The notes under the pieces are model-generated. The model was given only the letters and a program-made list of their open reading frames with translations. It did not search any database and was not told where the DNA came from. Both the position numbers and the translations under genes were made by a program. A stretch of 64,000 nt of DNA from a virus, in the IMG/VR virus record IMGVR_UViG_3300028920_000029, positions 96,001-160,000 of that record, one strand, 5' to 3'. Shown one piece after another: positions 21,880 to 61,528 of the stretch (the stretch's first letter is position 1; the number at the start of each line of letters is the position of its first letter).

Positions 21880-22626
21880 AACTTCACCTCCATAATAAGA
21901 TTGGTGTTAGTCTTCTTCCCATTCGTCCTTTGTTTCCTCCTCGCCGTTAACTCCTACCTCCGTAGCGATGTAGTTCCATAATGCTTTGCCTTCGTACTGG
22001 CTTTCGGGGAATGATCCGTATGCCTCGTCATACTCCCTGCATATCTGTTTAACTTTCTCTATAGGCACTTCCATCTTAATACCTCCAGACGTCTATGATG
22101 CCCCGCACTGCTATATAGTAACAGGGCACACAGACCAGCAGTCGTATGAGTATCCCCATACCTATCTTCTTCATTGATACCCAAAGCCCCATGGTACAAG
22201 CGAACAGGGCTATCAGTAAGAACGTTACTACTAATGGATTCATAGTACTCACCCCCAAAGTAGGATTATGCTCCTGCCTAAGATAAAGAAGGCAAGGTAA
22301 CATGCAATTCTATACATAGTTCTTTCAAGTACATCATCAACTTTAGTTTCTGTTAACCACATCAAGCACACAACCACTGCCAAAGCACAACCCAGTAACA
22401 CTGTCATAACGATTGGATTCATAGTACTCACCTCCTATTAGTTTATAAGTCCGAGGGAGCCTAAGCTCCCTCATACTACCAAAGGCTAGACATCTTCATA
22501 GTAACACCTCCTTAGTATTATTTTATTTATTATTTATTTTATTGTCGAGCACAAGAATATTGTAGAGTACTACAGTACTAGGGGGTATACCTATGCTCGG
22601 TGCCCCCAGGGTGAAAATCACCTTCT

Positions 22627-22962
22627 CTCCCGATACCTAGGCTTCTAGGCTTCTAGGCTTCTAGGCTTCTAGACTTCTAATACTCCCGATACCTAGGCTT
22701 CTAGGCTTCTAGGCTTCTAGACTTCTAATACTCCCGATACCTAGGCTTCTAGGCTTCTAGGCTTCTAGACTTCTAGACTTCTAATACTCCCGATACCTAG
22801 GCTTCTAGTACTCTCGATACCTAGGCTTCTAGGCTTCTAGTACTCTCGATACCTAGGCTTCTAGGCTTCTAGTACTCTCGATACCTAGGCTTCTAGGCTT
22901 CTAGTACTCCCGATACCTAGGCTTCTAGGCTTCTAGTACTCCCGATACCTAGGCTTCTAGAC
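22627..22962. repeat. hierarchical 8-bp tandem repeat array
   Basis: GCTTCTAG units interleaved with 9 copies of CGATACCTAG spaced 56,48,56,24,32,32,32,32 bp. Confidence 0.95.
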
Positions 22963-31966: not shown

Positions 31967-32443
31967 ACGTTTTTTACTACCATATGTATCTGTTTGAGTA
32001 TGACAATTTGGACAAAGAATTCTTAGGTTCTCTAATCTATTGTCAGTATGATCACCGTTTATATGGTCTAAGTGCATACTTAGTTTTTTATTATTCCATA
32101 CGTTACCTTGACTACATTTCTCACATATTTCCTGCTTTAATCCAAACTCATATAATTTTTGTTTTAATGCATGACTTGTCCACTTAGCACCATCTAAACA
32201 AAGAACATTTTTTGTGAAGGACGTTATGGAGTGTTTCCTGCTATTGGCCCCAGTAGATGACCACCCACGATTTTTAAAATGGGACGTATCTAGCCCATAA
32301 TCCTTAATACGTTTAGCCACTAAATTGTGACTTCCTCCACCTACTCGTAAACCTAACTCTCTAATAATGTCCGCGACATTATAATGTCTTTTGACTAACT
32401 CGTTTAACAGTTCCTTACTATATTTTGTAGTATTTGCTTTCAT
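31961..32443 (-). CDS. HNH homing endonuclease (start revised to MKANTT)
   Basis: CEKC...LDHINGDHTDNRLENLRILCPNCH; stop codon lies inside the 5' end of tRNA-Tyr. Confidence 0.9.
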   Translation of the reverse strand: MKANTTKYSKELLNELVKRHYNVADIIRELGLRVGGGSHNLVAKRIKDYGLDTSHFKNRGWSSTGANSRKHSITSFTKNVLCLDGAKWTSHALKQKLYEFGLKQEICEKCSQGNVWNNKKLSMHLDHINGDHTDNRLENLRILCPNCHTQTDTYGSKKRG

Positions 32444-32470
32444 AGTAAACCTCCTATCTAGAATACTACT

Positions 32471-33227: not shown

Positions 33228-33231
33228 ATTA

Positions 33232-33304
33232 AAGGTTGGGCTGCGTACACGCTGTATCGTTTCTCCAAGGATTACGCCTCCTAGGCGACCAACTACCCAA
33301 CCTT
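33232..33304 (-). ncRNA. unidentified ~73-nt structured RNA
   Basis: 9-bp closing stem AAGGTTGGG/CCCAACCTT with internal CGCCT/AGGCG hairpin; fills the gap between RNase P RNA and tRNA-Lys. Confidence 0.45.
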
Positions 33305-33312
33305 ATTTTTAA

Positions 33313-33603
33313 AAGTAATTCATAACCCAGGTTCTGTTTTTGCAGTCATTAATCTTAGCGTCCTTACCCGCGTGCTCCGTGAGGTCTCATCATCACACGC
33401 CTATTTGGACTTGCTCACAGTAAAGGTTGGTCGTCTCACTTGTTTTTAGTTTATATAATTTTCAGAATCTGAGTTTTTATAAAACTAAAAACAACTCGTC
33501 TCTGTCCCCTATTTGTCGCTCACGCGCCCAGCTTTTAAGACTGGTACTGCGCCTCAATTGAGCCTGGAGTTTCCTCGGTTTCCCGCGACTGCTTGAATCA
33601 CTC
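33313..33603 (-). ncRNA. rnpB: RNase P RNA
   Basis: P1 GAGTGATTCA/TGAATTACTT, P2 GCAGTC/GACTGC, GAGGAAACTCCAGG and AACAGAACCTGGGTTAT forming P4 with the bulged U; ACAGA, GAGCAAG motifs. Confidence 0.9.
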
Positions 33604-33816
33604 TTATTTTTTCAACAATGCAATTAATTCTCTTCTAGCTTTTGCTTCCTCTGGGGTATCGTGAACACTATGATCTACCCATTTAACATCCACTTCTGAA
33701 TACTCAACAAATCTACCATCAACTAAAATCCATCCTCGTTTTGTGTTTTTGTTTCCAAATAATACTGGTCCAGCAATTTGTACTTTTTCTCCTGTAGCTT
33801 TAATTATTGCTTCCAT
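33604..33816 (-). CDS. hypothetical protein (start revised to MEAIIK)
   Basis: AAGGAGGT RBS; the longer ORF in the track overlaps tRNA-Asp. Confidence 0.65.
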   Translation of the reverse strand: MEAIIKATGEKVQIAGPVLFGNKNTKRGWILVDGRFVEYSEVDVKWVDHSVHDTPEEAKARRELIALLKK

Positions 33817-33928: not shown

Positions 33929-33957
33929 AGTATACTTAAAATACCAACAAGCGTCAA
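33929..33957 (-). promoter_or_regulatory. internal promoter upstream of tRNA-Asp
   Basis: TTGACG-17nt-TATACT. Confidence 0.7.
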
Positions 33958-34219: not shown

Positions 34220-34248
34220 AGTATACTTAAGGTTTTGACATATGTCAA
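34220..34248 (-). promoter_or_regulatory. internal promoter
   Basis: TTGACA-17nt-TATACT; -35 is half of the palindrome TTGACATATGTCAA. Confidence 0.75.
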
Positions 34249-34571: not shown

Positions 34572-35117
34572 CTATATCTTCCATTTTTTACGTCTTTTAA
34601 TAACAGCTTGACCACTACAATTTTTAATAGTAGCAATCTCTTCGTTAGTTTTTCCGTCTTTTACTAAGGCCTCAAGTTCTCTTTTGTTCCATTCTATTTT
34701 TCCAGCTAATTTTCCTGCACACATTAAAGAACAAGTTTTTCTATATGCCATCTTTTCCTTGCCACATACTGGGCAAAAATCCTTTAATTCGTTTTTAGTA
34801 GAATCTGTTATAAGTTTATCATTAAATCTCAATGCTGTTTTTGGAATTATACTTATTAATCCATGCACTTCGCTATGACAATTGCTACAAACCATAACAC
34901 ATTTTTCTACTTCTTTTTTAATTTTTATCCACTTCGTAGGATCTCTAAGCATAAAAGCAATTCCGCTTTCTTTATCTTTACTATTTAAATGATGGAACTC
35001 TAAAGCGTCTATATGTTTATTATACCCACAAATGCAACATTTTCCACCAAAACCTTCTACTAGTTTCTTTTTTGTATTCCGTCTCCAACGTTTTACAGCC
35101 TCAGATTTAGCACTCAT
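34572..35117 (-). CDS. HNH endonuclease with C-terminal Zn-finger/HTH
   Basis: GGKCCICGY...ALEFHH...KCVMVCSNCHSEVH. Confidence 0.88.
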   Translation of the reverse strand: MSAKSEAVKRWRRNTKKKLVEGFGGKCCICGYNKHIDALEFHHLNSKDKESGIAFMLRDPTKWIKIKKEVEKCVMVCSNCHSEVHGLISIIPKTALRFNDKLITDSTKNELKDFCPVCGKEKMAYRKTCSLMCAGKLAGKIEWNKRELEALVKDGKTNEEIATIKNCSGQAVIKRRKKWKI

Positions 35118-35659: not shown

Positions 35660-35670
35660 TCTTAATTCTC

Positions 35671-35745
35671 TGGTAGTCGGAGTGGGTACTGCCCCCACCT
35701 GGTCCTCTTTGTAAGAGAGGTGCATGACTAATCTGCCATCCGACT
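35671..35745 (-). tRNA. tRNA-Val(TAC)
   Basis: CCTCT-CTTACAA-AGAGG; atypical D and T loops. Confidence 0.85.
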
Positions 35746-35918: not shown

Positions 35919-35920
35919 TC

Positions 35921-35991
35921 TGGTACCACGAACTGGAATTGCACCAATCCTCTGGGCGTATGAAACCCTGAGTCCATCTAATGGTCGTGGC
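35921..35991 (-). tRNA. atypical tRNA(CAT) with shrunken D-arm
   Basis: acceptor GCCACGA/TCGTGGT, GGGT-TTCATAC-GCCC, T-arm, CCA; D-arm reduced to CCAT-TAG-ATGG. Confidence 0.7.
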
Positions 35992-35999
35992 CTATATTT

Positions 36000-36075
36000 T
36001 GGAGCCCACGGAGGGACTTGCACCCCCAACCGTCGGTTTACAGGACCGCTGCTCTTCTATTAAAGCTACGCGGGC
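36000..36075 (-). tRNA. tRNA-Thr(TGT)
   Basis: CGGT-CCTGTAA-ACCG, C2:G71; C33. Confidence 0.85.
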
Positions 36076-36349: not shown

Positions 36350-36426
36350 TGGTCTAGGTGGAAGGATTTGAACCTTCGACATCTTGCTTCCAAGGCAAGC
36401 AGGCTACCAGACTGCCCCACACCTAG
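36350..36426 (-). tRNA. tRNA-Pro(TGG), first gene of the array
   Basis: CTTGC-CTTGGAA-GCAAG, C1:G72. Confidence 0.92.
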
Positions 36427-36431
36427 TCGTT

Positions 36432-36471
36432 AAAATAAAAAAGGCCCGACGGATTTCTCCGCCAGGCCTTT
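36432..36471 (-). terminator. intrinsic terminator (attenuator) directly upstream of the tRNA array
   Basis: 14-bp stem AAAGGCCTGGCGGA-GAAA-TCCGTCGGGCCTTT running into a U-rich tract, ending 5 nt before tRNA-Pro. Confidence 0.9.
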
Positions 36472-36492
36472 GTCTAGTACTACTCTAATTCG

Positions 36493-36645
36493 TCACATAG
36501 AGCTGCCTGGCAGACCTGGCGGTTTTTGTGTATCTATACATACCGCCGCCAACAGAATATAGGCATGCATAAATAACTGGCTATCGCCAAGCCATTCTGC
36601 TCTTCGCCTATTCTCTGTGGTCTGTGACAAACTCTTAAGCAACAT
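36493..36645 (-). CDS. 50-aa leader peptide containing all 20 amino acids (not in ORF track)
   Basis: AGGAG RBS at 36655-36659; MLLKSLSQTTENRRRAEWLGDSQLFMHAYILLAAVCIDTQKPPGLPGSSM*; lies between promoter and terminator. Confidence 0.8.
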   Translation of the reverse strand: MLLKSLSQTTENRRRAEWLGDSQLFMHAYILLAAVCIDTQKPPGLPGSSM

Positions 36646-36717
36646 GATTTATTTCTCCTAATTTTGGTGCTATGTTGGACTAGCACCTTATGCTAACACA
36701 ATCTTTATGACAATACA

Positions 36718-36746
36718 AGTATACTCATGGTTTCGGTAAATGTCAA
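36718..36746 (-). promoter_or_regulatory. promoter of the leader/tRNA operon
   Basis: TTGACA-17nt-TATACT. Confidence 0.85.
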
Positions 36747-37570: not shown

Positions 37571-37992
37571 TTAGTATCTCCTTTAGTAGGGTAAGTTCTT
37601 TTTTCGGTATCTGGTTCTACAGATATATCGCCAACTCCTATATAAGCTTCCAAGTTCCTCTTGGGTTTAACTTTTGAATTAATGGTATCTATGTACGCAT
37701 GCACTTTATCAGACATAGTTTTTGTAGTTATATCTTCTGGAAGCTCATCCTCAACAATCTTTTTGTCGTTTAGAATAACGGTGAATCCTCCAAGCATTCC
37801 AGGGGCCTTTGGGTTCGATGTAGGCATTACCGCAACAGGTTTATAAAACTTAAAATCCTTTTGTAACTGAATACCTAATGATCGAGCCAGTTCCATAGTA
37901 GTCGCTGCACGAGATAATACGTCCGATAAATCCTTCTTAGATAACTTCATGAACTCTTTCCACTGTCTTGGTTCTATTCTATTCATCTTCAT
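37567..37992 (-). CDS. hypothetical protein
   Basis: 141-aa ORF. Confidence 0.65.
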   Translation of the reverse strand: MKMNRIEPRQWKEFMKLSKKDLSDVLSRAATTMELARSLGIQLQKDFKFYKPVAVMPTSNPKAPGMLGGFTVILNDKKIVEDELPEDITTKTMSDKVHAYIDTINSKVKPKRNLEAYIGVGDISVEPDTEKRTYPTKGDTK

Positions 37993-38416
37993 AGCTATCC
38001 TCCATACTAAGTCTTTTAAGTGTTGAATATACGTGTCTGTTATCTAACTGATACTCGTGCGGGAAATAACACTCATATTTTTCGGCTATGAACCTTGCTA
38101 CCGCCGCAGACCTGCTAACTCCTCCTTCACAGTGTACCACTATATGCTCAATGTCCTTTGGAAGCATATCTATAAACTCTAGTATCTTACGTGCGTCATC
38201 CTCCGTAAAGTTTATATACTCATTCTCTTCTGCGCCGTCAAAGACCCAGGCACCTCTGACGCCATCCACGTCATGAAAAGCAAGCCTTAAAACATACTTC
38301 CATAACTTGTGTAGTGTTGGGGCGTCTCTTTTGGGGTCCCTAATGGAAATTAAAGCTACATGTTCATTAGGTACCACCTGTTCTATAACTGCCCTGGATA
38401 CGAAGTCGACTTTCAT
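37979..38416 (-). CDS. dual-specificity/tyrosine phosphatase family protein
   Basis: CX5R motif VHCEGGVSRSAA, FHD loop. Confidence 0.85.
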   Translation of the reverse strand: MKVDFVSRAVIEQVVPNEHVALISIRDPKRDAPTLHKLWKYVLRLAFHDVDGVRGAWVFDGAEENEYINFTEDDARKILEFIDMLPKDIEHIVVHCEGGVSRSAAVARFIAEKYECYFPHEYQLDNRHVYSTLKRLSMEDSYEDE

Positions 38417-39254: not shown

Positions 39255-39743
39255 CTACTCTTTAAGTAGCTCATCCCCAGTCTTATTAAGACTTGGGTCA
39301 TCTATATTGTACCAAGTCTTACCTCCGTCCTTAGAGAAGAAACTTGGGTCTCTTTTGTTTTGCCACAGGGTTTTGGCGTTTTTACCACACATATCTGTGA
39401 TGTCCATCCACTCATCTGGATTAGAAGAAATAGGTGTTAAAGTTTTATACTTAAGCAGTTTGTTTAGTATATCTATGGTAAGACTTGCCGAGAAACCGCT
39501 ATGACCTTGCGTAGAAAAAACCTTAACCATGTCTAATATACTTTTACCAAGTGCTCCGTTATAATCTGAGCCTTTGTCAAACATGCCAGCTCTCCGAAGT
39601 TCTTTTTCCGCATGACTAACTAAGTTGCTTTTTCTAAACCGTTCCTTAAAGTTAAAAAAATTTACTATCCTTGTCCACCAAGATATATACCAAAACAGTT
39701 TAGGTGTTGCTACGGGCTCAAGATCTTTCTCATCACTCGACAT
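39255..39743 (-). CDS. conserved phage protein
   Basis: HAEKEL..GHSGFSA..DEW..QNKR motifs recalled from phage proteins. Confidence 0.7.
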   Translation of the reverse strand: MSSDEKDLEPVATPKLFWYISWWTRIVNFFNFKERFRKSNLVSHAEKELRRAGMFDKGSDYNGALGKSILDMVKVFSTQGHSGFSASLTIDILNKLLKYKTLTPISSNPDEWMDITDMCGKNAKTLWQNKRDPSFFSKDGGKTWYNIDDPSLNKTGDELLKE

Positions 39744-41922: not shown

Positions 41923-41950
41923 AGTATACTGATAAATTGCTATTTGTCAA
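41923..41950 (-). promoter_or_regulatory. sigma70/sigmaA-type promoter
   Basis: TTGACA-16nt-TATACT. Confidence 0.75.
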
Positions 41951-59503: not shown

Positions 59504-61528
59504 TTATTTATTAAGTACTTTTGATATTCCATCTCTCTTCTCCACAATAATTAAATTTTCAAACATATCTTCAAGATCGGGAAAGTGCGTAACAACAAAA
59601 ATCTGAAATTTGTTTGCCAATAATTTTATCATATCTCCTATAATCTCCCTAGCTTTATCATCGAGGTCAGTGAACCCTTCATCTATAATCATAAATCTAA
59701 ACCCGTATTTTGTAGCCATAATAGTTGAGAATGCCAACCTAATAGCAAAGTTAACTGTTGACCTTTCTCCACCAGACAAAAGTTCCAACCCGTATATTCT
59801 ATCCTCGGAAATCTTTTTTACCATAATATCAAACGTGGGCTTGAACCCTTCCCCAGATTTCTTCTGCCGCTCCATTTGAAATATAACAGAGTAGTTCATA
59901 ACCCGTAATAGAGAATTAGCTAACGTAGCTATCTCTCCTAACGCAGTAGTAAAAAGCCACCGCTGTATACCATTAGGAGACAGTATCTCTCCCACACTTC
60001 TAAGTATCTTTTCAGCTCTTGCGTGACCTTGTATATCGTTTTCTAATACACCGATTTCACTGGCGTATGAATCTACGCGCCGTGTATCGTTTAGGTGGTC
60101 AGACAGCCTACCAGTAAGCCTGGTTAACTTTGACTTAAACTCATCTAACTCGCCACGTATATCATTTATTTTTCTTTCCGCAGCTACATTCTCTGCACTT
60201 TCTACGGCCTTCCATTGCTCCTTTAAGCTTGCTAAAGACTTCTCAAACGCCTGTACCTGTGTCTCTAATGTACGTACCTGCCCAGATAGCATGGCTATCT
60301 TACTCTCAACATCTTCTTTACTTCTGATATGTTCTGCGTATACCACAGCTTGTTGTGTTATAGTTGCTAACTCCTCACTATCTTTTACCCTCTTAGCTTT
60401 AGCAGCGTCGGTTTTTTTAGTCAGCTCGGTTAGTTCGTTTGATTGTTTTTGTATTTCTATGTTTACGTGGTCCGCTATAGCTGTTTGTTCCTCACCTGTT
60501 AAAGCTCTATCACACATCGGACACCTATTAGCGCTTAGCATATCCTGCATGGAGGCCCTATATTTCTGCAGTACATCAGTCTTTATTTTTACCTCATGCT
60601 CAAGAGACGCTATATACTTCTCCATATTTAAAGAGCTGGCTACAAGCGCCTGCCTGTAGTTGTCGTCTATGGCAGTTATCTTTTTAGACTTTAGGTTATC
60701 TAATATAGTCTTCTGCTGCGTTAAGGCTGTAGTCGATTGATCTAGGGAATTCTTAGCTAACTTATAGTTTCCCTCCGCAGTATCAAGTTGAGATTTTAGC
60801 TCAACCTTTCTATTCATATTGTTTATAGTTGCTGCGTGCGCCGTAAGGACTTCTTCTTTTTGTTTTATCGCATCATTAGTACTTGCTATGTCGCTCTTTA
60901 GTTTCTCCGTATCAACTCCAGCAACAATTTCCTTTAGCTCGTCCATACTCTTAGTAAGCATCTCCATCTTTACTTTAAACTTACTTGTCGACTTAGATAG
61001 TTGAGTACTTAAACTTTTTGCGACGTCGTAATACTTTCTCCACCTATCTATGTCAAGAAGCTCCATTATGAATTCTGACTTCATTTTAGGAGATAGCAAC
61101 CCAAAGAACTGGTTAAACCCCTGGGCCTGGAATATCGTTTGGTCGAATAGCCTTTTACTTATCTTAAGAGTTTGGCGTATAAACTTTTCTACCTCGACCT
61201 TAGATTGCGACGTTTTCACTCCATCCTTATATAAATCTATGGAGTAACTATCCGTAGTCATTATCTTTTGTATTTTAAACGTTGTGGAGTCGACTATAAA
61301 CTCTAGCTCTACCGAACCAGTGGACTTACCGTGCTGTAAATATTGTGAGGTTTTACCATATAGGGCGTATTCGATACCATCAAATATAGATGATTTACCC
61401 GCACCATTCGACCCGCTCCTATCAATGTTTATACCTTTTATTAGCACTGGCGAAGCCATAGTTGAAAAGTTTATATACGTATCTCTGTGTGATTTAAAGT
61501 TTTTAAGTCTTAGGCTTTTCAGTATCAT
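59504..61528 (-). CDS. sbcC: SbcC/Rad50-like SMC ATPase
   Basis: GSNGAGKS, Q-loop, Zn-hook CPMC, LSGGE, IIDEG, VVTH. Confidence 0.92.
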   Translation of the reverse strand: MILKSLRLKNFKSHRDTYINFSTMASPVLIKGINIDRSGSNGAGKSSIFDGIEYALYGKTSQYLQHGKSTGSVELEFIVDSTTFKIQKIMTTDSYSIDLYKDGVKTSQSKVEVEKFIRQTLKISKRLFDQTIFQAQGFNQFFGLLSPKMKSEFIMELLDIDRWRKYYDVAKSLSTQLSKSTSKFKVKMEMLTKSMDELKEIVAGVDTEKLKSDIASTNDAIKQKEEVLTAHAATINNMNRKVELKSQLDTAEGNYKLAKNSLDQSTTALTQQKTILDNLKSKKITAIDDNYRQALVASSLNMEKYIASLEHEVKIKTDVLQKYRASMQDMLSANRCPMCDRALTGEEQTAIADHVNIEIQKQSNELTELTKKTDAAKAKRVKDSEELATITQQAVVYAEHIRSKEDVESKIAMLSGQVRTLETQVQAFEKSLASLKEQWKAVESAENVAAERKINDIRGELDEFKSKLTRLTGRLSDHLNDTRRVDSYASEIGVLENDIQGHARAEKILRSVGEILSPNGIQRWLFTTALGEIATLANSLLRVMNYSVIFQMERQKKSGEGFKPTFDIMVKKISEDRIYGLELLSGGERSTVNFAIRLAFSTIMATKYGFRFMIIDEGFTDLDDKAREIIGDMIKLLANKFQIFVVTHFPDLEDMFENLIIVEKRDGISKVLNK

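Follow-up and report, generated by a model that had tools for sequence, protein, structure and literature searches.

A 64,000-nucleotide (nt) window of phage DNA, bases 96001-160000 of the 173,362-bp IMG/VR record IMGVR_UViG_3300028920_000029, carries a leader element directly in front of a tRNA gene array: a consensus promoter, a folded leader with its own short open reading frame (ORF) and an intrinsic terminator. In our judgement, there is an about even chance that this element is a ribosome-mediated (leader-peptide) transcription attenuator that gates the phage tRNA array. All positions are given in window coordinates and on the minus strand, where all genes surrounding the element also lie. 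The phage is uncultured, with a genome of 40% G+C that is rated complete, and its closest cultured relatives share only ~25% identity with it (in the terminase and SbcC-like proteins).

The promoter, a leader of ~280 nt and the terminator make up a complete transcription unit around the fold (Table 1), with transcription predicted to start near 36711. Promoters of the TTGACA/TATACT type with a spacing of 16 or 17 recur on the minus strand at 41950, 36746, 34248 and 31824, joined by a TTGACG/TATACT site at 33957, and this recurring motif suggests early transcription units that depend on the sigma-70 factor of the host. A simple scan of the whole 173-kb genome, for stems of -12 kcal/mol or better followed by a U-rich tail, returned only five terminator-like sites, and the leader terminator is the strongest of them. 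Its stem has pair probabilities of 0.9-1.0, and it lies between the leader ORF and the tRNA genes, as is required of an attenuator.

The tRNA array runs from 36426 to 31883 and comprises 26 tRNA genes predicted by ARAGORN, to which Rfam added a tRNA-Thr(UGU), and a reading of the gaps added a tRNA-Val(UAC) and a third CAU tRNA-like gene. These three genes have C33, an odd T arm and a reduced D arm, respectively. With them included, all 20 amino acids are represented in the phage tRNA set. The first block (36426-34262) holds 19 tRNA genes headed by tRNA-Pro, and no promoter of the TTGACA/TATACT class was seen inside it; the next such sites, at 34248 and 33957, are leaderless and serve the later tRNA blocks. 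The 5 nt between the terminator and tRNA-Pro are too few for another promoter. Given the lack of a promoter in the first block and a terminator immediately before tRNA-Pro, the 19 tRNAs would be made only by polymerases that pass the terminator.

The leader itself is unusually stable. The stretch at 36487-36633 (147 nt) folds with -58.9 kcal/mol, compared with -37.5 ± 3.4 kcal/mol for 200 dinucleotide shuffles, none of which was as good (z = -6.25), and with its flanks (291 nt) the z-score is -7.15, again with no shuffle as stable. The opposite strand folds less stably by 8.4 kcal/mol, since several of the pairs in the minus-strand RNA are G-U, an asymmetry that would be expected were the minus-strand RNA the folded molecule. 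The G+C content of the leader is 47%, against 35-40% in the flanking genes and ~37% at the third positions of genes. RNAfold reproduced the multibranch fold outlined in a preliminary description of this DNA, with a closing stem (P1), a long arm A, an arm B and a small arm C.

Most of the individual pairings in that description were recovered, and every helix listed there is complementary at precisely the positions given. Complementarity was found for P1 (36633-36623 with 36497-36487; 11 bp including two G-U), for the CAGACC/GGUCUG helix (36624-36619 with 36516-36511; 6 bp) and for GGCGGU with ACCGCC (36547-36542 with 36523-36518; 6 bp), while the proposed AUAGGC/GCCUAU arm pairs with a probability of 0.97-1.0. 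The UGGCU/AGCCA arm is likewise complementary, but its hairpin has a probability of 0, and a shifted register of GAAUGGCU:AGUUAUUU plus GGC:GCC forms instead. What had been drawn as a single structure resolves into two, since P1 and the CAGACC/GGUCUG helix compete for one 5′ strand and exclude each other: they occurred in 993 and 1001 of 2000 sampled structures, respectively, and together in one. Conformer A consists of P1 and an extension (36642-36637 with 36485-36480), and conformer B of an imperfect 15-bp helix (36635-36619 with 36516-36499). The two are iso-energetic (-103.6 and -103.3 kcal/mol); in the full-length RNA each has pair probabilities of ~0.5, and B stands at 0.75 prior to synthesis of the terminator.

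The strand that would decide the fate of the transcript lies ahead of the stop codon. Two overlapping registers of this antiterminator strand can pair with the 5′ arm of the terminator, namely AT-1 (36522-36512 with 36469-36459; 11 bp) and AT-2 (36514-36505 with 36467-36458; 10 bp), the latter being present in the minimum free energy (MFE) structure of a transcript cut at 36456. The 11-bp duplex of 36523-36511 with the terminator arm reaches -23.6 kcal/mol, compared with -13.6 ± 2.1 kcal/mol for shuffled leaders (P = 0.0015), and random genomic windows gave P = 0.002, so the antiterminator assumed earlier is well founded. Both of the partners then assigned to it were also identified. Its 5′ half, ACCGCC, is held by GGCGGU in arm B (codons 33-35), and the strand of codons 4-9 pairs with it directly in conformer B and encloses it by way of P1 in conformer A. 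In these models, protector, antiterminator and terminator pairings exclude one another in this element as they do in an attenuator, and both the fold and the terminator/antiterminator wiring are real and non-random.

The wiring bears directly on the alternative that this is a free-standing gene, encoding a stable structured small RNA or a 50-amino-acid protein and closed by a constitutive terminator, with the tRNAs derived from leaky read-through and the complementarity lacking any role in switching. We consider this unlikely. It leaves unaccounted for a complementarity with P ~0.001 and two protector pairings on that very strand, and the strongest terminator of the genome would throttle 19 tRNA genes with no other promoter. 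The leader peptide has no homologue or domain that we could find, and with 14 residues its hydrophobic stretch falls short of a membrane helix. Nevertheless, promoter, ~280 nt and strong terminator are all that such a gene would need, and the full transcript at equilibrium favours protector plus terminator (-103.6 kcal/mol) over a fold with the antiterminator forced (-84.8 kcal/mol) by 18.8 kcal/mol. The tRNA cluster of phage T4 includes stable small RNAs to which no function has been assigned, and RNase P cleavage at tRNA-Pro would free the same leader RNA under either reading. A type I toxin mRNA of the hok/fst kind was considered and rejected, given the length of the hydrophobic stretch and the lack of any plus-strand promoter-like site across 36430-36720.

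Since the structured RNA comes immediately after a promoter and ahead of a terminator, it could also act in processive antitermination, either by itself, as HK022 put does, or as the site at which an antiterminator protein of the phage acts; the polymerase would be modified and the tRNA array timed in infection. Antitermination-based temporal control of gene blocks is common in phages. However, a put-like element acting in cis would leave the terminator without purpose for any transcript that runs across it, nothing would account for the specific complementarity to the terminator arm, and the leader matches no known RNA family. We regard this explanation as very improbable, and even pooled with all others besides those discussed here it is still quite improbable.

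The leader ORF has the signals expected of a translated gene. It is preceded by AGGAG, and AGGAG or GGAGG occurs 5-11 nt upstream of 57% of the long ORFs of this phage compared with 3.2% of all ATGs; the Shine-Dalgarno (SD) sequence and the AUG are largely unpaired in the model. The ORF is called as a gene in the source record, and a 50-codon open frame is expected with P = 0.049 given the composition. We infer from these features that it is translated. Its UGA (36495-36493) comes once the antiterminator strand has been passed, leaving 22 nt to the terminator stem.

The encoded peptide contains all 20 amino acids, as do 2.3% of 50-codon windows from phage genes and 7.7% of composition-matched open shuffles. 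Under strict wobble rules the codons cover 26 of the 27 anticodon species of the phage, and under relaxed rules all 27, which corresponds to P = 0.011 and 0.007, respectively, against composition-matched open shuffles; among 20000 gene windows, 0 and 7 do as well. The leader also has three Arg codons in a row (AGG, CGA and AGA), and for each of them the phage carries a different matching tRNA-Arg. Measured against the first tRNA block alone, the leader shows no enrichment, with 18 of its 50 codons specifying amino acids of the later blocks that have their own promoters, about the share of these in the proteome.

The effect of a ribosome was modelled by forcing 28 nt to remain unpaired (the first P-site base with 12 nt on its upstream and 15 nt on its downstream side) at each codon in turn, with steric effects outside the model. 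With codons 1-11 in the P site, AT-2 forms at the decision point, where the 5′ arm of the terminator is out and the 3′ arm is not yet made, with P = 0.69-0.97; before the 5′ arm appears, the antiterminator strand is 26-48% unpaired (codons 4-11). With codons 29-36, AT-1 forms with P = 0.99-1.0, the earlier exposure being 35-53% (codons 28-37), and arm B is lost when the footprint lies on codons 30-40. At codons 13-27 the strand is 6-18% unpaired before the 5′ arm is made, no better than in naked RNA. Neither register can form at codons 41-48 because the ribosome covers the antiterminator strand, and at codons 49-50 the model pairs the strand across the ribosome, which was judged sterically impossible.

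The outcome of this constrained folding consequently varies with the position of the footprint, and the independence from position that would have refuted the original proposal is not what the models show. It had been proposed that stalls spread over ~40 codons give one output, and the predicted map supports this for codons 1-12 and 28-40, which expose the antiterminator, but not for codons 13-27, which stay locked unless ribosomes queue, or for codons 41-48, which mask it. With ribosomes queued every 10 codons behind a stall, one covers codons 4-9, and barriers drop to 7-10 kcal/mol at several positions, although these values are noisy. In general, direct-path barriers for ribosome-bound RNA (7-32 kcal/mol) are too noisy for ranking positions, because long-range pairings of the 3′ tail and the 5′ untranslated region (UTR) dominate them and depend on the exact transcript start.

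A leader-peptide attenuator of this kind could operate as follows. Host RNA polymerase would start at the consensus promoter and make the ~280-nt leader. If no ribosome loads, the strand of codons 4-9 would close the fold in either of its two ways while arm B pairs the rest of the antiterminator strand, and this lock would let the terminator form and stop transcription 5 nt before tRNA-Pro. A first ribosome that keeps pace would stand on codons 41-50 or the stop codon during synthesis of the terminator, cover the antiterminator strand and likewise cause termination. A lagging ribosome on codons 1-12 or 28-40, or anywhere before codon 41 with a queue behind it, would cover one of the protector strands, and the freed antiterminator strand (36523-36505) would pair with the emerging 5′ arm of the terminator, permitting read-through into the tRNA genes. 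With every amino acid present in the leader, phage tRNA synthesis could rise whenever almost any charged tRNA runs short. P1 and the conformer B helix cover the ORF from +4 to +27, and a released leader that has folded might be poorly re-initiated, which would make the element a one-shot sensor of its pioneer ribosome. A pause at K-P-P-G (codons 41-44, on the antiterminator strand) would favour termination; this motif may be a by-product of complementarity to CCUGGCGG. Ribosomes are the best-supported signal for the element, an assignment drawn from one sequence and held with no better than even confidence.

Several observations weigh against this reading, the first of them energetic. The fold was originally described as hiding the antiterminator, and the strand is indeed 94% paired in the naked leader before the 5′ arm of the terminator is made. 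At the decision point, however, the antiterminated fold of ribosome-free RNA is 3.4 kcal/mol better than the P1 fold (P ~0.9), and therefore the protection would be kinetic, not thermodynamic. Transcription completes the closing helix ~10-20 nt ahead of the 5′ arm, and reaching either antiterminator register from either naked conformer requires 20-29 base pairs to be broken, with direct-path barriers of 20-29 kcal/mol. These barriers are crude upper estimates that ignore pseudoknotted intermediates, and the default-off state depends on them. Furthermore, the G+C content and extreme stability of the leader would equally suit a purely non-coding RNA.

The codons of the leader also leave room for doubt. 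Random choice among synonymous codons for the same peptide equals the observed anticodon coverage in 15% of trials (P = 0.15), so the coverage signal reflects amino acid diversity only, and it was noticed post hoc. Unlike classical leaders, the ORF has no runs of regulatory codons. Its Pro codons occur only in the masking zone, where a stall favours termination, yet tRNA-Pro is the first regulated gene, and tRNA-Gly(UCC) has no strictly cognate codon in the leader. The placement of the Pro codons and the gap at Gly(UCC) weaken the case for a strict sensor of all tRNAs.

Finally, the locus is an orphan. Searches of IMG/VR and 5.8 billion proteins with the leader peptide returned only itself, and no relative of the locus holding the leader was found in any collection searched, leaving a single sequence. 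The 115- and 162-amino-acid proteins encoded upstream matched only themselves, apart from one match of 36% identity on a 583-nt contig, and the neighbouring 145-amino-acid phosphatase-like and 162-amino-acid Tad3-like proteins had no match in IMG/VR. A 24-mer of the phage tRNA-Pro likewise had no match in IMG/VR. A 21-mer of the antiterminator strand gave three chance matches in metagenomes, on contigs of 54-75% G+C with no further similarity, and a 17-mer of the variant P4 strand of the phage RNase P RNA gave one chance match in IMG/VR without a tRNA or RNase P. Relatives of the terminase were limited to three contigs of 8-13 kb (52% identity), too short to include a tRNA region. Comparison with cultured phages by blastn matched tRNA-Pro only.

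The small energy difference at the decision point is also what would allow a ligand to tip the balance. In that case the element would be a riboswitch-like or factor-dependent attenuator, in which the P1-closed fold senses a small molecule, a tRNA or a phage or host protein and the ORF is fortuitous. Its layout is of the aptamer type, with a closing helix, a three-arm junction and an expression platform directly behind; it is very stable and enriched in G+C, and the significant complementarity of terminator and antiterminator fits any attenuator. This explanation is nonetheless unlikely in our view. It does not explain an SD and AUG placed exactly at the start of the fold, a 50-codon frame (P = 0.049), a stop codon between antiterminator and terminator or the content of 20 amino acids, and nothing indicates a candidate ligand or factor. 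A search of a 311-nt stretch against Rfam gave no family at threshold, the best hit being the trpB motif (E = 0.11), which aligned only with a hairpin and the terminator; no riboswitch model matched, and the T-box model gave no hit at E values up to 10. An apparent likeness of AAUUAGAGUAGUAC to the T-box sequence was not confirmed by that model.

Leader-peptide attenuation is best compared with the enterobacterial leaders trpL, hisL, leuL, thrL and pheL and the multivalent leaders of ilvGMEDA and ilvBN. These share with the phage element a short leader ORF, three exclusive pairings and a terminator directly before the regulated genes, and in them, as proposed for the phage element, a ribosome at the end of the ORF blocks the antiterminator while a lagging one frees it. 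The enterobacterial leaders differ in regulating biosynthetic enzymes rather than phage tRNA genes, and in having ORFs of 14-32 codons rather than 50. The phage leader instead contains all 20 amino acids without a run of regulatory codons, has its antiterminator strand inside the ORF, and relies for protection on a large multibranch fold that can close in two alternative ways and extends over the start of the ORF as well. The pyrBI leader of Escherichia coli (44-codon ORF) resembles the phage element in its long ORF and in an output set, as would be the case here, by the gap between polymerase and ribosome, not by one amino acid. There, the ribosome translates into the terminator hairpin and close coupling gives read-through, whereas the phage ORF stops short of the terminator stem, and termination is the predicted result of tight coupling. 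T-box riboswitches report tRNA charging through a choice between terminator and antiterminator, as this element might, but they bind tRNA directly, need no translation and control synthetases, while tRNA genes would be controlled here. Full-text literature searches found no description of leader-peptide control of tRNA genes.

A second case with some of these features was found in the Caulobacter phage CcrColossus (NC_019406.1), in which an unannotated 39-codon ORF (L015:4601-4720, plus strand; about 61264-61383) and a hairpin downstream of it directly precede ten tRNA genes (Pro x3, Lys, Leu x3, His, Ala and Ser). Those six amino acids account for 29 of its 38 residues, compared with a background of 38% (P = 1.8e-6). 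In both cases, known from their sequences, a phage tRNA block is immediately preceded by a mini-ORF with a hairpin, and the composition of the peptide mirrors the tRNAs. The two have no sequence similarity, and only the present leader lies within an unusually stable multibranch fold. As the array here is complete, the match takes the form of all 20 amino acids, unlike in CcrColossus. We found no published codon-matched mini-ORFs before phage tRNA arrays. The CcrColossus case raises the prior for codon-matched leaders before phage tRNAs and is silent on the fold described here.

The tRNA array is split into blocks by HNH endonuclease genes, which are typical mobile insertions, and it includes a gene for RNase P RNA. 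This RNA is compact, and CCAGG/CCUGG replace the usual strands of P4. The unit that separates it from tRNA-Lys is not tRNA-like and occupies a putative small RNA slot in the array. A few kb before the array begins, the gene for the Tad3-like protein is probably an anti-defence gene. Elsewhere in the window, a non-coding tandem array of short CUAGAAGCC and CUAGGUAUCGGGAGUA units has strong predicted structure and may represent iterons or a protein-binding array.

Table 1. Positions of the leader element, the tRNA array and other features of the phage.
Feature	Position	Strand	Details
Sigma-70-type promoter, TTGACA-17-TATACT	36718..36746	-	11/12 consensus matches
Two small 5′-UTR hairpins upstream of the ribosome binding site	36666..36701	-	MFE helices 36701-36697:36692-36688 and 36687-36681:36672-36666
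Shine-Dalgarno AGGAG	36656..36660	-	10 nt before AUG; unpaired probability 0.43-0.87
Leader ORF, 50 codons + UGA	36493..36645	-	All 20 amino acids; spans the whole fold
Shared 5′ closing strand, codons 2-9	36619..36642	-	Pairs with 36497-36480 (conformer A) or 36516-36499 (conformer B)
Arm A, long imperfect hairpin with AUAGGCG:UGCCUAU	36549..36620	-	Core pair probabilities 0.97-1.0
Arm B, GGCGGU (codons 33-35) with ACCGCC	36518..36547	-	Probability 0.5-0.66; proposed protector hairpin
Antiterminator strand	36505..36523	-	Two overlapping registers complementary to terminator 5′ arm; encodes K-P-P-G-L-P-G
3′ strand of P1 and extension	36480..36497	-	Contains UGA stop codon 36495-36493
Intrinsic terminator	36431..36471	-	13-14 bp G+C-rich stem, GAAA loop, UUUUUUAUUUU tail (U6AU4)
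tRNA-Pro(UGG), first gene past the terminator	36350..36426	-	Starts 5 nt after the U tract
Three tRNA or tRNA-like genes missed by ARAGORN	36003-36075, 35660-35745, 35919-35990	-	
HNH endonuclease genes within the tRNA array	34572-35117, ~31970-32470	-	phrog HNH families, E 1e-22 for the first
RNase P RNA, bacterial type A, inside the tRNA array	33308-33604	-	Rfam RF00010, 112 bits, E 3e-34
Unit between RNase P RNA and tRNA-Lys	33228-33307	-	73-80 nt, 10-bp closing stem, -27.6 kcal/mol
Non-coding tandem array, ~450 nt	~22450-22950	-	Short CUAGAAGCC + CUAGGUAUCGGGAGUA units; predicted structure z -4.8
Dual-specificity-phosphatase-like protein	37979-38416	-	HCxxGxxRS motif, phrog_5614
162-amino-acid protein, Pfam Tad3 (type I Thoeris inhibitor)	39255-39743	-	E 6.6e-38
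GroEL homologue and NrdD-like anaerobic ribonucleotide reductase	L007:740-2374, L007:5994-8012	-	GroEL E 1e-162

Phage tRNA arrays are usually seen as aids to codon usage or as replacements for host tRNAs destroyed in infection or by defence nucleases, and to our knowledge the control of their expression is largely unknown. We tentatively propose, at somewhat below even confidence, that the leader senses translation capacity in general. It contains every amino acid, and after a single reading by the first ribosome behind the polymerase it would lock itself, such that lag at most codons would open the complete tRNA set and, by read-through, the phage RNase P RNA. If so, tRNAs would be supplied on demand, for example when host tRNAs are degraded or are cleaved by defence nucleases. 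The compactness of the element (~330 bp with a sigma-70 promoter) makes it directly testable in E. coli reporters and in vitro, and it might find use as a synthetic sensor of ribosome speed. A translation-sensing attenuator before a complete tRNA set would mean that the phage's tRNA supply is driven by demand, and would carry a textbook mechanism from amino acid biosynthesis over to the translation machinery.

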